A DNA stretch of 64,000 nt from Eledone cirrhosa (lineage: Eukaryota): the NCBI GenBank assembly GCA_964016885.1, contig OZ024742.1:147250001-147314000 (forward strand), read 5' to 3'. Positions 2,600 to 61,150 of the stretch are shown one piece after another. The notes under the pieces are model-generated. The model was not told where the DNA came from and searched no databases. It saw only the letters and a program-made list of their open reading frames with translations. The translations under genes and the position numbers were made by a program. Every line of letters begins with the position of its first letter. Positions within the stretch are counted from its first letter, which is position 1.

Positions 2600-3690
2600 T
2601 TCTCCCGGATGGATAATGTGCTCGTAAGCTGGCTTATGTATAGAGTCCATTGGCCTTCTAAGTTCAGTGTTGTGTTCTGGCTATGATTAATGCTTCCTTA
2701 ATTCTGAGATTGCCAAGGTTTCTTTTGTTTTAACCTTAACTGTTATTTTTTTGGTAGTGTTTTTGCATTTCTCTAAGTTTTTCTTGAATGTGGAAGCGTT
2801 AGTGTTAATGTGTTCCTTAATCCTGATGTGTAGGTGTCTGATGGTGCTACCTATATAGAAGTTGTCGCATTTATCACATTGGACTCTGTACACGACGGAT
2901 GATTGATGGCATATGTCTGTGTTATCAATGGAGCAGTTGGTGAGCGTGCAGCATCTGTTGTGTTCTCTAGGTCATGTCCTAGATAGTTATCTGCGTAGAG
3001 AGGGCCCCGAGGGAGCTAGTTGTAAGTCTAGTCCTTCTCTTCGGATGGCCCTGCAGATGGCTGTTGTTGTGTTATCACTGAAATGTGGGAGCTTCAGAAA
3101 GTAGGTGTTGGTGGAGATCATGCTTTGAATGCAGTGTTTCCTATTTCTAATGCAGTTCCTGGTGGCTGTCGAGTAACCGTTTAACTTAAGCACTTCCAAG
3201 AAGAGTGTGGTGTGTGTGTCTCGATCTCCTGTGGTGCTGTATTTATTCTAGATACATGTCAGTTCATTCCTTATGTATCCAGACTTGGCACCAAGGGTGA
3301 GGGCCAATTTGAAATGGATGAACAGGTCCCTGCTGGCGGCTTTTCTGTAGAAGCTGGTGGAGATGCCGCCTTCTTCCGTTACCTTGAGTTGGAAGTCTAG
3401 CATGGAGAGGGATTCAGTGTCATCAGGATGTTCCATGCTGAACCTTATGTTAACGTCCATGCTGGAGAATGCCATGTATATTTTGTCTCCTTCTTCATGG
3501 GATGGTGTAAGGAAGAGTATGTCATCTACATATCGGGTGAAGAAGGTGTTGAGGGTCCGATATTCCAGCTGGTTCATATAAGTGATGGCCAGCAGGCCTG
3601 ATAGGCTGGATCCCATAGGTAGTCTTGTTGTCTGTCTGTATGTGTGGTGGTGGAAAGTGAAGTAAGTATTATCCACCTTGATATTTAGAA
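2600..3690 (-). mobile_element. Penelope-like element, 5'-truncated and degenerate (RT core/thumb plus GIY-YIG endonuclease)
   Basis: ORF 3248-3727 has LPMGSSLSGLLA, RYVDDI, LDF and YRK. ORF 2687-2893 has YRVQCDKCDNFYIGST...RIKEH. Confidence 0.9.
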
Positions 3691-4079
3691 TATATATACA
3701 TTTCAAACACAGAAAGGTCACACACACATCAAATGATGATGATGATAATATATATATATATCAACATCATCATCATTATGGATTGTACAGGTCCTTCTCC
3801 ACTTGTCGCATTCCTTTGTCATCCCATTCATGAGCTTTAGTGATCTGAAAGCAGCTCTCACCACTTTCATCCAGGTATCATCATAATCATCATCATCACC
3901 GTTTTACGTCTATTCTTCTACGCTAGCATGGGTTGGACGGGTTGTCCTGTTGTGGGCAGTGCCAGGTCGGGTGATCTTGTCTTGCTCATACGGGAACTGA
4001 TTTTGGCTTGATTTCTACAGCTGGATGTCCTTCCTAACACCAACCTCATTTTCAGTGAGTACTAATATATATATATATA

Positions 4080-17790: not shown

Positions 17791-17928
17791 TATATATATA
17801 TATATATATATTAATAAGAGGAATTCCAACTTTGTCTGATTTACTCGTTTTATTTACAATCCTTTAAAATATATATAATGGTATTATAATGAAATAGTAT
17901 GATAGAATATTAAATTCTAAGTGTTAAT

Positions 17929-17967
17929 TGAACAAGTACTTTCATGCTTTCGCAATCTTCAGGTTCA
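17929..17967 (-). ncRNA. Minimal type I hammerhead ribozyme (left arm of the palindrome)
   Basis: UGAAC-CUGAAGA-U-UGC-GAAA-GCA-U-GAAA-GUAC-UU-GUUCA. Confidence 0.8.
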
Positions 17968-18040
17968 TGATATGTGGTGACAGTCGAGTTTGCAATTTTC
18001 AACTGTGGAAAATTGCAAACTCGACTGTCACCACATATCA

Positions 18041-18079
18041 TGAACCTGAAGATTGCGAAAGCATGAAAGTACTTGTTCA
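18041..18079 (+). ncRNA. Minimal type I hammerhead ribozyme (right arm of the palindrome)
   Basis: UGAAC-CUGAAGA-U-UGC-GAAA-GCA-U-GAAA-GUAC-UU-GUUCA; predicted CUU cleavage triplet. Confidence 0.8.
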
Positions 18080-18286
18080 ATTAACACTTAGAATTTAATA
18101 TTCTATCATAGTATTTCATTATAATACCATTATATATATTTTAAAGGATTGTAAATAAAACGAGTAAATCAGACAAAGTTGGAATTCCTCTTATTAATAT
18201 AATCTTCTATACACAATCATACACACCCGTGTATATTTACCTATCTATATCTATATATATATATATATATATACATATACGTGTTT

Positions 18287-31700: not shown

Positions 31701-32044
31701 TGTAACTATGAAACATGACATTTTAAAATCAAAATTTAGAATATCATAATTGTTATTAAATAAATTTCTTTTACTTTGGGTGTTATCTCTGTTTTAGAAG
31801 TTAGTATGGATCGATGCTGGAATGTTAACATCGTTCTATGAGTACATCTATATTGATGTACTTTTAATTTTTATTAAGTTACTTGTGAGCAGGTGCAGGG
31901 AGGCCAAGAGCCTTTAGCTGATTTATTCCAGCTGTATCATGGATTGTTGCTGGAATCCCAGCATAGTAAACTTATATTTCTGTCCTTGGGTCCCTAATTG
32001 CATTAATCCAGCATTGGATAAGGGTTATTTTGAAAAATGATGTA

Positions 32045-32886
32045 TGTTTTATGAAGTAGTGTTGTGTGGAGAGGTGGTTATGTTTTGTGAGGTAAAGCTG
32101 TGTGGAAAGATGGTGTATGGTATATGTGTTGTGAGGTAGAACTATATGGAAGGGTGGTGTATTTATTGTGAGGTAGGGTTGTGTGGAATAGTGGTGTATG
32201 TATTGGGAGGTAACTGTATGAAAAGGTGATGTATAGTGAGTGTATGATTTATGAGTTAAGGCTGTGTTGAAAGGTGGTGTGTGTATTGTGAGGTAGGACT
32301 GTGTGGAAAGGTGGCATTTGTGTTGTGAGTTAAGGCTGTGTTGAAAGGTGATGTATGGTGTATGTATTGTGAGGTAGAACTGTGTGGAAAGGTGGTGTGC
32401 ATGATGTAAGGTGCAGTTGTATAGAAAGATGGTGAATGGTGTATGTGTTGTGAGTTAGGTGCTGTATGTGTTGTGAGGTAATGGCTATGTGGAAAGATGG
32501 TGTATGGTGTATGTGTTGTGAAGTAGAACTGTATAGAAAAGTGGTGTATATGTTGTGAGGTAGAACTGTATGGGAAGGTGGTGCATAGTGCAGATATTGT
32601 GAGATATGACTGTGTGGAAAGATGGTTTATGGTATATATGTTGTGTGGAAAGGTGGTGTTTGTATTGTGAGATATGGCTGTGTGGAAAGATGGTTTATGG
32701 TATATATGTTGTGTGGAAAGATGGTGTTTGTATTGTGAGATATGGCTGTGTGGAAAGATGGTTTATGGTGTATGTGTTGTTAGGTAAGGACTATGGGAAA
32801 TGTGAAGTGCCGTGTATGTATTGTGAGGCAGAACTGTGTGGAAAGATTGCGTATGGTGTATGTGTTGTGAGGTATGGGTGTGTTGA
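32045..32886. repeat. GT-rich degenerate minisatellite (units of about 35-45 bp)
   Basis: Repeated tgtgaggtag..ctgtgtggaaaggtggtgt. Confidence 0.9.
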
Positions 32887-33867: not shown

Positions 33868-34094
33868 TAGGGTAGTGGATTGGCAGTGTATCAATAGAGC
33901 ATTGGACACCATGCTTCGCAACATAGCATTACGGCCCTTTGTGTTCTGGGTTCAAATCTCGCCAAGGTTAGCTTTGCCTTTCATCCTTACAGGAGCGATA
34001 AAATAAAGCACCAGTAATGCACTGGGATCGATGTAATCGACTTTCCCCTCACCCTTCAAATTGCTGGCCTTGTGCCTAAAGTAGAAACAATTAT
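33868..34094 (+). mobile_element. tRNA-derived SINE, second family (longer variant)
   Basis: Same head and body; attatatctga flanks both ends (TSD). Confidence 0.85.
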
Positions 34095-34483: not shown

Positions 34484-34540
<57 letters not shown>

Positions 34541-34711
34541 ATAAGGATATTTATATTTATATATGTTTAATACAACTATAAATATGGAGGGTAGTACTAA
34601 GTACTAGCCGGTTACCGGTATGACAAAAGGCTCTATGCAAATTTTCAAGTGTTTTACAGAGCCGAGATACAAAGTGTTAAAACGATCAAATTTTAGTTTA
34701 GAACATTTATT

Positions 34712-34758
34712 TGCTGACAATTGTTTCTTCCAGAGGGAAGTCTGGAATCATCAGAGCA
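34712..34758 (-). ncRNA. Minimal type I hammerhead ribozyme, fully canonical
   Basis: UGCU-CUGAUGA-UUCCAGA-CUUCCC-UCUGGAA-GAAAC-AAUU-GUC-AGCA followed by AAUAAA. Confidence 0.85.
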
Positions 34759-35154
34759 TAGGGAATGTCGAAACATGTGACTAAAATCCTAGTCATTGAA
34801 TGACTATTTAGTCACATGTTTCGACATTCCCTATTTTCTGATGATTCCATACTTCTAAAATTTGATCGTTTTAACACTTTGTATATATATATATATCATC
34901 ATCATCATCCTCATTGTTTAACGTCTATCTTCCACGTTAGCATAGATTAGATGGGTTTGTCCCATTTAGAGGCAAGTTGGCTTGGATGACCATGTCTCAC
35001 TCATATAGGACTGTTTCTGGCTGGTTTTCTATGGCTAGATGCCCTTCTTAATGGCAAATATATATAATATATCTATTGAAATATAGATTAATATGTGAAG
35101 TAATTAATCAAGTTGTCTGACAAAAGTATAGGTTGATCAAAGTGCTACAGATAG

Positions 35155-35196
<42 letters not shown>

Positions 35197-35296
35197 AGAG
35201 AGTGTAACGCAGAGTTACTGTAGGTTCACATGGGTGAGCACTCGATGCTTAGGTTCACGTCAGTATCGAGGTGTAGAGCTAGACAGAGTGTAATAT

Positions 35297-35480
35297 AATA
35301 ATTGTTTCTACTTTTGGCACAAGGCCAGCAATTATCCCAGTGTATTACTGGTACTTTATTTTATCGACCCCGTAAGGATGAAAGGCAAAGTTAACCTCGG
35401 CGGGATTTGAACTCAGACCATAAAGGGCCGTAACTCTTTGCTGCAAAGCATGGCGTCTGACCCTCTACCGATACTGCCAA
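35297..35480 (-). mobile_element. tRNA-derived SINE, second family
   Basis: Reverse complement of 28951-29142. Confidence 0.9.
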
Positions 35481-35932
35481 TACACAAGGACGAATATATT
35501 TCTTCATTACTGCTACAGAGGTCCGACGAGCTTTTGATTCCAGAATCGGGCTAGATCGATACAGATTGAACCTTGAGTTGACCTGTAGCAAAACGCATGT
35601 CACCAACCAATAAACGTAATGAAGGAGTAACCATTCGTCCTTGTATTATTATTATAATATATATATATATAAATGGAAAAAATGAAACAAAATTTCATTT
35701 CTCACTCTTAGTACGGCTGTTACTTAAATATAAGTATGTATACATACATATATGTATACAGACGTACAGTAGTATGTACATATATACATACATGCACACA
35801 TATATATATATGTACGTATGGATTCACCAAACATTTATTATAATGCTCGGTTTGTTTGTAAACAAACATCCCGAATTAAGCCGTACAGTGTTTAGCAACC
35901 ATCGTTGCCCTTTTGTTCAACACTGACAAAGG

Positions 35933-35976
35933 AACGATGTACTAGTTTCAAGCTTATTAGCTATCGTCAGCACCGT
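35933..35976 (-). ncRNA. Minimal type I hammerhead ribozyme (left arm)
   Basis: ACGGUG-CUGACGA-U-AGCU-AAUA-AGCU-U-GAAAC-UA-GUA-CAUCGU. Confidence 0.8.
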
Positions 35977-36114
35977 ATACCTTCCTGCCAGATGATTGAA
36001 CGTCTGAAAGTATATACTTTCCTTATGCATGTTAACAGCTGAGCAGCCTAATTTGCATATCGAGTGAGTTAATCGTATATACTTTCAGACGTTCAATCAT
36101 CTGGCAGGAAGGTA

Positions 36115-36159
36115 AACGGTGCTGACGATAGCTAATAAGCTTGAAACTAGTACATCGTT
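36115..36159 (+). ncRNA. Minimal type I hammerhead ribozyme (right arm)
   Basis: AACGGUG-CUGACGA-U-AGCU-AAUA-AGCU-U-GAAAC-UA-GUA-CAUCGUU; predicted cut after 36152. Confidence 0.85.
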
Positions 36160-36361
36160 CCTTTGTCAGTGTTGAACAAAAGGGCAACGATGGTTGCTAA
36201 ACACTGTACGGCTTAATTCGGGATGTTTGTTTACAAACAAACCGAGCATTATAATAAATGTTCGGTGAATCCATACGTACATATATATATACATGTGCAT
36301 GTATGTATATATGTACATACTACTGTACGTCTGTATACATATATGTATGTACGTATACATA

Positions 36362-36569: not shown

Positions 36570-39551
36570 CTCCAGCGATGGGAAAAAAAACGTCACCTGG
36601 TTCAACAACTACTACGAAATGGATTTCAAAAATGAACAACATACAGGTAACCCATTTTTAAAACAAACTAAAACTCACACACCACACTCACAACAAATAA
36701 TTTTAAAAAAGTAACAAAAAGTCCAACATAGCCCCACCAAAATTATGACGATAATCCCAGAACCCATAGACAAAAATATAACCCTACTAAAAAAAAAACG
36801 AATGTTCCCCAACACAAGACAGGACCCAATCCGCAGATCACAGCCCACACAAAACCTATTCCAAAACCGTAGACCCCAACCCACACAGAACCTGTTCCAA
36901 AATCGTAGATCCCAACCCACACAAAGGAACAAAATCTACAACCCAGACAATCAACAAACCGAACCTCAATACGTCTGAAACTTCTATACAAGACCACACA
37001 ACAACAGGAGAAATGCCATTAGATATAATAATTGTTTCTACTTTAGGCACAAGGCCAGCAATTACCCAGTGCATTACTGGTACTTTATTTTATCGACCCC
37101 GTAAGGATGAAAGGCAAAGTCAACCTCGGCGGGATTTGAACTCAGATCGTAAAGGGACGTAACTATGCTGGAAAGCATGGCGTCCGACCCTCTACCGATA
37201 CTGCCAATCATTAGATATAATAATACCCATGAAAAACCAATTCAGAAAAATCATTTTTTAGACCAAGGCTACAGGACCCACGACACCCGGTGGCATAAAC
37301 CGATTTTGAAAAACCGAAAATAATCAAGCTTTCAAATACAAACTTCTCAGCCCAACAAATTAAAATTCTCTCCAAAGGACTGAAATTCACACCAACACCA
37401 CAATACTCTAACCTCAATGAGATAAATGTCGATATCTTACACTTCTGTAGAAAATTATGTCTCACAGAGGAATTTTTTGACAAGGAGAATAACGACCAAT
37501 CAATTGTACGGAATAAAAGCAGCTACAACCCAACAAAGGGTAGAAACAGAGTTCTGGACAAATTTTGTGACCACATAGCAACTTTCCCATACCATGAACT
37601 ACCGCAACCTAAACCCAAACCCAACACGAGTCGAAGGGAATGGGAGATTATCCATGAACTAAAAAACAATACCAACATTATAATTAGGGAAACGGACAAG
37701 GGAAGTACTGTACTGTCGTCATTATGGATGCTGAATAATATAAAAATTCTATGTTCTCTCTCTTACAAGATACTAACTACTATGAAATACTACCAGCAAT
37801 CAAAAACGATGACCAGATTAAACACATTTATTTGTCGATACCAGGAAGACTTAACTAAAAAGGAACGCGATTATTTAACACATTTTGAATACAAAACCAG
37901 CAACCTTTACGGACTTCCGAAGATCCACAAGTGTAAAATAATTAACGATGCCTGTAAACAAATCACCACAACCTGTGTGAACACACAATACCCCACAGAC
38001 CTTAAATTAAGACCAATTGTAGCGGGCCCACAATGTGAAATACACAGACTAAGCAACTTTATAGACATACTACTAAAACCAATTCTCAAACACATACCAA
38101 GCCTTGTAAGAGAATATCTGGACCTCTTAAACCACCTCCCCAAACATGTCAACAACGACACTATTATTGTGTCTTTCGATGTAGTGAATCTCTACACAAC
38201 GACCCCACACCAATACGGACTAGAAGCAATAGGATTCTGGCTAGAGAAATATCCCAATGAGATACCTGACAGAATAGAAAAAAGCTTCATCACCGAGGGA
38301 TTAAAATTTATTTTACAGAACAACTTTTTTTATTTCGATGGCTGTACTTACAAGCAAATATCAGGCACTGCGATGAGTACAAAAGTCGCTCCAACTTATG
38401 CCAACTTAATCATGGCATACTTGGAAGTCCAGATATATGAACAGTCCAAATCAAAAATACAGATTGAACTTCCACAAATATTTATCAGAGAATTGGAAAC
38501 GCTACTTGGATGATTGTCTCATTCTTTGGTCTCACACACTCGACCAACTAAATGATTTCAAAAATTTAATTAACGGCATCAATAACCACATCCAATTCAC
38601 AATGGAATACAGCCAAGATCAACTCCCATTTCTGGACATCTTAATCATAAAAAAGACACAAATATTGAAACTGACATACACTACAAACCAACAGATTCCA
38701 AACAACCAAACAATACCTCCAACCATCCAAAGCACACGAAGACGAACATCCCTTTTAACCTAGCAAGAAGAATTTGCACAATTGTCTCCAATTATGAAAC
38801 GTGAAATAAAAGACTTCAAGAATTAAAGGAAATTCTACTCGAAAGACAGTACCCACCATTACTAATAAATAATGGAATAGAAAGGGCTAAAGCAATAGGC
38901 ATTGGTGAATTACGAAAACAGAAACAAATTCAAGGTACGTCCAATATTCTATCATATATCTCAACACACAAGCCAAGAAATGCAGAAGCTTACAACACTA
39001 TTCACAAGAACATCCCACTATTGAAACAAGACCCAAGAATGAAAAAAAGCCCTTGAAACAACAAATAATCAAAAGCAAAAGACAACTGAAATCACTAAAA
39101 ACATTACTCACCAATGCCAAATTACCTACCACAAACCCACAACTAACTGTCAAAAAATGTGGTCGCTCTAATTGTGGAACCTGCACTCACCTCATTGAAG
39201 GCAACACGTATACATTTCAATCAGGACAAAATTTTGCTGTAAAAAAATACTTCACTTGCTCATAAAAAATCTACTTTATGCCATTAAATGTAAAAATGCA
39301 ATGAAGATTATATAGGACAAACTAAACTCACACTCAGAAACAGAATGACAGTTCATCGCCAACAATTACGAGATCCTACCACGAGAAAGATACCACTCAG
39401 TGCACGCCTAGACATATGCGCAAGTAATAAGACACTCAAATTCCAAGTCTTCCCATTTTATCTTGGCGCTGACAATACAACAGAACAAATACGAATAAAA
39501 AAGAAAAATATGTTTATTCAAAAATATAGACCAGCATTAAATATAGTTTAA
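36570..39551 (+). mobile_element. Near full-length Penelope-like element (Neptune-like), frameshifted: N-terminal domain, RT, thumb, Cys linker, GIY-YIG
   Basis: LSKGLKFTPTP, YGLPKIHK, LRPIVAG, SFDVVNLYT, GTAMSTKVAPTYANL, RYLDD, LPFLD, CGRSNCGTC, YIGQT...RMTVHR. Confidence 0.95.
37033..37208 (-). mobile_element. SINE (second family) inserted in the Penelope ORF
   Basis: TSD cattagatataataat at 37017-37032 and 37209-37224. Confidence 0.95.
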
Positions 39552-43927: not shown

Positions 43928-43970
43928 TCTTCTGATGAGGGTCTAATTAGATTGAAAAATCGATTAAAGG
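43928..43970 (+). ncRNA. Candidate minimal hammerhead
   Basis: UCUU-CUGAUGA-G-GGUCU-AAUU-AGAUU-GAAA-AAUCGA-UUA-AAGG. Confidence 0.55.
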
Positions 43971-44334: not shown

Positions 44335-44377
44335 GTCAAAGTTCTTTCGTCACACATTCTGTGACCTCTTCAGTGAC
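44335..44377 (-). ncRNA. Minimal type I hammerhead ribozyme
   Basis: GUCA-CUGAAGA-G-GUCAC-AGAAUGU-GUGAC-GAAA-GAAC-UU-UGAC. Confidence 0.8.
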
Positions 44378-60154: not shown

Positions 60155-61150
60155 AACAGCGGCGGGCAACTGACGGCCATGCGGGGCATGGAGGGCCCCT
60201 TGCAGACAGGGCCTCCAACTACACTCTGATCCCTGCGGCGGCTGCCATGCCCGCGGAAGACAGTGTAATCGAATGCCAGGCAGAACTGAGCAGCAGAGGG
60301 GGGGGGGGGGGCACCGCGCTGACAGAACAGCACCCAGATAATCGGGGGAGTGCCGTGGTAAACCAAGGGCCCAGTGTTGGAAATGAGCAACATAACGACC
60401 GAACTTGCAACTGCAGAGTGGGCACACAATGGGTAGATGCCTAACGAAGGGCCTAGTATATAAATGTGTGGTTAACACGCACAACAGCAAGCACACCTAC
60501 ATCGGCGCAACATCCACAACCTTTAAATCGAGGATGTATAATCACACAAACTCTTTCAAGGACCGGAGCAAGAGACACTCCACTAGACTGGTGGACCTAA
60601 TATGGGACTTGAAAGACAACGGCACCCCGTATGATCTCAACTGGAGTATCGTTCAACATGCAAATGCATATTCGGCCGGAAACAGGAAGTGTAGGCTATG
60701 CCTATCCGAGGCCATGGAGATTCTCCGCATGGACGCAACCGGACGGCCCAAGCTAAACGCATGCGAGGAAGCGGACGCTGGTCTGAGTGGTGCCGCGGGT
60801 CTAAGGAATCAAACAACATACCTGGTTGACTATGTATGCCCTGTGGGGTAAGTCGACGCAACCTATGCTGCCAATCGGACTCCTAATCAACATCACATGA
60901 GCCGAGACACGGTAGCTCAACCTCCACGGATGGTCGGTCCCGTACCATACTTCAATAAGGCACTCTATATCACTCACAGTGACATGCTCCTTTATGGCCT
61001 GTTCACACACTCCCTGCATGTGTATCTTTTCAGTGGTATGTGCATATTCTCCACGCATTCCATTACGTAACACCCCATGTATTTTTCCATGTACAGACCA
61101 ATGTATATCTTTGTATACTTTTCTTATATAATTCAGATGTATGTATATTT

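Follow-up and report, generated by a model that had tools for sequence, protein, structure and literature searches.

The 64,000-nucleotide stretch of Eledone cirrhosa DNA analysed here (the window) carries on its minus strand a hammerhead ribozyme motif beside an inverted copy of itself that lacks the cleavage half. The question raised by this locus is whether the asymmetry was built in, arose while the pair was being formed or came afterwards. At 34535-34884 a Penelope-like retroelement (PLE) has inserted inside (TA)n as a 5'-truncated, head-to-head copy, and such a two-armed stub is ordinary anatomy, one decayed remnant among hundreds. Positions within the element are given as q numbers, which run along the minus strand from window position 34798 (q1) to 34535 (q264), with negative values denoting sequence further 5' in longer family copies. 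The features of the locus are the following.

34486-34534, no strand: (TA)n target microsatellite on the tailed side, recognised from the sequence and from family copies ending in TA runs
34535-34666, minus strand: 132-nt tail (q133-q264); the same sequence in long copies enters the coding region directly
34667-34797, minus strand: section of the long arm common with the partner (q2-q132)
34706-34711, minus strand: AAUAAA directly 3' of stem I
34712-34758, minus strand: minimal type I hammerhead, with the predicted cut between 34716 and 34715 and a self-complementary stem III region
34790-34806, no strand: fold-back apex, 8 nt per arm around the single base 34798, with no spacer
34799-34884, plus strand: inverted arm without the tail (q2-q132), altered by deletions of 4 nt and 41 nt and by 3 substitutions
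34838-34849, plus strand: remaining CUGAUGA-UUCCA in the inverted arm
34885-34896, no strand: (TA)n target microsatellite on the tail-less side

The whole long arm (34535-34797, minus strand) carries both the minimal hammerhead and the tail, and its boundary with the (TA)n is ambiguous across 34535-34537. Over 34667-34797 it has the majority sequence of the family, with the T at core position 4 as the sole exception. The short arm ends at the second fixed 3' end of the family (q132). Compared with the long arm, it lacks 4 nt after 34806 and 41 nt at 34855, the latter with a 1-nt microhomology, and is substituted at 34835, 34836 and 34850, in stem I and stem II. The missing 41 nt are the counterpart of 34697-34737 and include GAAA, GUC and AAUAAA; alignment of the arms is thus in agreement with the preliminary description, according to which the partner had kept CUGAUGA-UUCCA and lost these three elements. 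That description also had the partner starting at 34808 after a spacer that was itself a hairpin. The arm actually begins at 34799 and there is no spacer, only the apex, where the arms meet with their opening 8 nt on either side of the 1-nt loop and which the 4-nt deletion in the partner sets off from the remaining arm. The window copy has no ORF or promoter region of its own.

The locus had been counted as a third fold-back module, and two further ones with hammerhead-like cores are indeed present at 17807-18201 and 35731-36361. The former is near-perfect and lies in a TA run, with 197-nt arms, a 1-nt loop and a hammerhead-like core in each arm; the latter, which belongs to another family, has 287-nt arms that are 97% complementary, again with a core in each. 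No BLAST similarity was found between these two fold-backs and the family of 34535-34884. Two type I hammerhead-like motifs at 43928-43970 (plus strand) and 44335-44377 (minus strand) face each other without being head to head. An abundant short interspersed repeat flanks the locus in three copies, one of them inverted (33888-34028, 35293-35481 and 37023-37208), and also occurs inside several family copies, and a degenerate GT-rich tandem array with 37- and 44-nt periods occupies 32026-32878. Judged by eye, the open frames at 37299-38513 (plus strand), 3248-3760 (minus strand) and 60396-60851 (minus strand) resemble PLE-type reverse transcriptase (RT) or GIY-YIG fragments of other families.

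Read along the minus strand, the hammerhead consists of a 4-bp stem I, CUGAUGA (34754-34748), a 7-bp stem II with a 6-nt loop, GAAA (34727-34724), C-AAUU-G and GUC (34718-34716), followed by AAUAAA. It had been described as perfect. The type I fold is upheld, and with it the short stem I, long stem II and palindromic helix III of minimal PLE hammerheads, but perfection is not: stem II is closed by U-A, leaving the motif without the G10.1-C11.1 pair of the canonical hammerhead, stem III has only 2 bp within a self-complementary 8-mer, and the core is a minority form. The stable helix III of the canonical hammerhead is lacking: when the motif is folded in isolation, stem III is predicted to pair with a probability of at most 0.001, and the hammerhead fold is at -7.2 kcal/mol as against a minimum free energy of -12.1 kcal/mol. 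The fold at 34712-34758 is not due to chance, since a loose hammerhead descriptor finds three motifs in the window, this one included, and gave a single match in 100 shuffled windows. Rfam at gathering scores returned no matches across the window.

The repeat family to which the locus belongs gave 2654 first-look candidates in the 3.0 Gb genome searched, the best copies being 95-98% identical, and one family 29-mer has 549 exact matches genome-wide. Three long copies (L063, L068 and L069) connect this 3' end with a broken RT and GIY-YIG ORF, in the fragments of which RT motifs are followed by an IIY...YIG motif. This order of domains is that of EN+ PLEs, as are the hammerhead motif in a terminal repeat and the 5'-truncated insertions, inverted with a one-sided tail in 70 of 73 pairs and partially tandem in L069. 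The 132-nt tail passes without a break into the coding region in L063 and L069, which identifies it as the start of the next tandem unit; the unit also has a long AT-rich 3' region with internal TA runs. Within the PLEs, the family probably belongs to the Hydra clade, an assignment that rests on motifs. DKG is replaced by DKT in all three long copies, and the position of RWK is occupied by RWR in two and RLR in one. A CxCx5C linker is present in L062, L068 and L069, the GIY-YIG nuclease is without CCHH, having at most one Cys within the motif, and CxxC and CxH, around the conserved E and N near the C-terminus, are found in L063 and L068. The (TA)n insertion target is likewise a Hydra clade feature. 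A Pfam search with four ORF fragments gave no relevant match and a PDB sequence search gave none; among atlas neighbours (score 0.93-0.97), which are leads only, 12-13% of members carry RVT_1 and 18% GIY-YIG.

The architecture of the insertions was surveyed in 248 distinct arms from 206 fetched loci, which were chosen by baits, and the counts are not genome-wide rates. The 3' ends of 115 arms fall at q130-134 and of 108 at q252-265, with 25 elsewhere, and the family has two fixed 3' ends 132 nt apart. Adjacent arms are head to head in 73 of 83 pairs, including four duplicates of L147, and in 70 of these 73 a tailed arm is joined to a tail-less one; of the other three, two are copies in three parts and one has an interrupted arm. 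The asymmetry that recurs is therefore the tail on one arm only, a known form of PLE insertion. Among the first 100 matches of the 29-mer, 24 were counted by eye as lying in such pairs within 10 kb. At L063:4235-4589 and L069:3133-4034 there are three-part insertions in which the short inverted piece is tail sequence only.

The two arms of a pair diverge by 4.9%, compared with 8.0% against random arms, and share 194 derived letters where 47 were expected (45 pairs), an excess which shows that both arms derive from one source. In the 37 abutting pairs other than the one studied here for which reach was compared, it is the tail-less arm that has the greater 5' reach in 20 and the tailed arm in 15, with no difference in 2, so the tail-less arm is not generally copied from the tailed one. 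The junctions of 25 of 40 abutting pairs have a 1-10-nt overlap. A survey for a recurrent fold-back site had been suggested, but the points of these 40 pairs are spread from q-540 to q220. Both points lie within about 80 nt upstream of the stem in 11 pairs, a placement that the baits favour. Near-symmetric apexes (within 10 nt) number 7 of 40 as against 2.1 by permutation (p=0.004), and the apex at 34798 is exactly symmetric; given this excess, snap-back synthesis could account for such pairs. At L046:1327-1552 the short inverted arm jumps from q70 to element sequence some 900 nt further upstream, which suggests a template switch.

From the sequence, the 41-nt deletion is likely to be chance damage private to this copy. 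Its junction has one exact match genome-wide, at this locus, a search that mismatched copies would escape, and the survey of family copies for a recurrent deletion that had been proposed earlier thus returned the junction only once. The module is asymmetric, as first described, in that a hammerhead is joined to a broken partner, but the special design which this implied is not borne out by a deletion of this kind. The rate of deletions of at least 8 nt is 0.57 per kb in paired sequence, as against 0.46 per kb for the unpaired (p=0.38). One-arm deletions touching the hammerhead affect 5 of 42 fold-back arms, a slightly higher share than the 3 of 61 among unpaired arms (p=0.27); an excess of deletions driven by the palindrome was accordingly rejected as not significant. 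For the hammerhead counts, arms were taken whether or not their motif was intact; of nine that were flagged, four (L124+, L189+, L202+ and L202-) were dropped as alignment artefacts of a 60-nt extension, and L198-L201 were counted as duplicates of L147. One divergent L127 arm was also excluded. The unpaired arm of L166 is without GAAA-GUC. Near the ends of contigs C1 and C2 one fold-back recurs, five times in all (L147, L198, L199, L200 and L201), apparently as a result of segment duplication, and in four of the five a 37-nt deletion runs through CUGAUGA in the tail-less arm.

The CUGAUGA core of 34712-34758 is a minority allele in the family. With the flanks fixed, 114 copies genome-wide have CCGAUGA, 25 have CUGAUGA and 3 have other forms with a changed G5, while the core dinucleotide of unselected arms is CG in 91, TG in 6 and CA in 1, with 9 scored as gaps. 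In the reads the C form makes up about 98% of the depth in runs X1-X3 and 221 of 244 reads in X7. U4 is found on several sequence backgrounds and is common to both arms in six pairs, including 34535-34884, and confined to one arm in three; its presence in both arms of the six pairs indicates that U4 is often older than the insertion. CpG decay was rejected as a simple origin of U4, as the site shows 25 TG to 1 CA. Nor was selection on G5 accepted from this asymmetry, a control CpG being skewed in the opposite direction (8 CA and 0 TG in the first 100 of 549 matches), and a selection test on the core using variants shared within arm pairs gave p=0.68. In a viroid, U4C lowers activity in vitro and infectivity is still possible (PMC3088659). 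No report of a PLE family with a C4 core was found in the part of the literature covered.

The locus is a two-armed copy of a PLE 3' end in a TA repeat; it was likely made by two reverse-transcription reactions from two cut DNA ends, and the inverted arm likely lost 41 nt later by chance. In such a scheme the GIY-YIG nuclease of the element would cut (TA)n on both strands, and each cut end would prime cDNA synthesis, starting at either of two internal sites on RNA from the same source element. Head-to-head joining of the two truncated cDNAs, in many cases across a short overlap, would come next, and the loss of the 41 bases would probably follow as a chance event. Twin priming is proposed for this family by analogy with the Anolis PLE of PMC11167929. 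In the predicted minus-strand read-through RNA of both arms, a hairpin of about -135 kcal/mol, stems I and II of the ribozyme have a pairing probability of 0 because the partner arm pairs with both. Any host read-through transcript would, on this prediction, be a long hairpin burying the catalytic half, and a dsRNA effect is more likely than an active ribozyme; inverted Penelope copies in Drosophila give siRNAs (PMC3681739).

The damage in the short arm could alternatively be a consensus error, made in assembling a long hairpin at an otherwise genuine insertion. All five arm differences fall in one arm, inverted duplicates are mis-called by Nanopore reads (PMC7229812), should such reads underlie the assembly, and read depth is 0 at 34818-34839 in all four runs sampled, although depth holes prove nothing by themselves. 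Moreover, X1-X3 yielded no contig with the letter of the window at 34634, even though the X1 contigs are identical to both flanks (0 differences) at a depth of about 12. On balance the reads lean against this copy as assembled. Position 34634 is, however, outside the hairpin, and the X1 result may equally reflect an insertion absent from the sample, drop-out of the hairpin beside TA runs or wrong assembled letters. As fold-back arms are also no richer in deletions than other copies, we consider a consensus error unlikely. An artefact of the whole locus is unlikely as well, since the arms stop at both family ends inside TA runs. We are a little more doubtful that the first cDNA folded back at 34798 and was copied with slips, so that both deletions were made during insertion. 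An exactly symmetric apex with a 1-nt loop, the surplus of near-symmetric apexes in the family and the minority T at position 4 in both arms would all be expected from such a snap-back, but one source RNA explains the shared letters equally well, the fixed end at q132 is still where the short arm stops, and no short arm has the tail. As a general route simple snap-back fails, since the tail-less arm is often the longer one in the 5' direction and then has sequence that is absent from the tailed arm; two end-primed cDNAs suffice.

It is very improbable that the asymmetry is functional, the antisense partner silencing the catalytic half and the looped-out GAAA-GUC acting as a switch or as a substrate for trans-cleavage. 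In the predicted read-through fold the partner does base-pair with stem I, CUGAUGA and the 5' strand of stem II, leaving the 41-nt cleavage half as a bulge, yet any deletion within a palindrome gives such a fold automatically. The deletion occurs once, there is no sign of conservation, and other one-arm deletions, at L014, L111, L137 and L147, remove the opposite half of the ribozyme, CUGAUGA, in either arm.

The single locus is of little weight, and it is the family that gives two usable facts. The one-tail rule and the shared source variants fit in vitro measurements on another PLE that revealed two internal start sites, and the non-canonical core in most copies bears on what PLE hammerheads are for, their function being described as unclear in PMC8557442 and their cleavage as dispensable in vitro in PMC11167929. 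It is conceivable, though we put it forward only tentatively, that the family is a record of twin priming, on a single source RNA, from two fixed start sites separated by 132 nt, and that it spread to hundreds of loci with a C4-weakened hammerhead, the canonical U4 arising repeatedly in source copies, this one included. Were this true, the family would be a naturally occurring test of whether self-cleavage is needed, tolerated or avoided in PLE retrotransposition.

The motif closely resembles the minimal type I hammerheads of metazoan PLEs (Cervera and de la Pena 2014, PMC4209133), with a 4-bp stem I, a 7-bp stem II and a short palindromic helix III. The animal PLE hammerheads described there share this architecture together with a highly conserved G10.1-C11.1 pair, whereas the present family is without that pair and mostly has C at position 4. 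According to the same source, single motifs show no cleavage and dimers cleave at a low level, and pairs of motifs occur on opposite strands, 100-700 bp apart. The insertions likewise resemble the inverted, 5'-truncated PLE copies with a one-sided tail of PMC8557442 (fig. 2) and those of Anolis Poseidon PAc, in which the tail lies between two internal RT start sites and both strands are cut and extended (PMC11167929): the inverted truncated arm is on the 5' side, the tail is at one end, there are two fixed ends and the target is AT-rich. The tail of 132 nt differs from the 30-40 bp in those systems, and the strict pairing of tailed with tail-less arms (70 of 73) is not stated in the portions of the two papers drawn on here.

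At the level of the element, the comparison is with the Hydra clade of C-terminal EN+ PLEs defined by Craig et al. 2021 (PMC8557442), which shares RT followed by GIY-YIG, RW(R/K), DKT, CxCx5C, the absence of CCHH, CxxC/CxH, (TA)n and a hammerhead near the 3' end. The unit here, at about 4.3-4.9 kb, is longer than the 'generally <3 kb' of that clade, RWR replaces RWK and the majority core is CCGAUGA. Cephalopods are represented in the supplement of PMC8557442 by one Hydra family, Hydra-1_Obim (2507 bp, (TA)n), with which the family is compared here by description. Finally, like the animal non-LTR retrozymes as described in part of bioRxiv 10.64898/2026.07.22.740005, the locus is non-coding, PLE-related and carries a type I hammerhead; unlike them, it is a single head-to-head pair rather than a tandem array, and represents the truncated 3' end of an ORF-bearing family.
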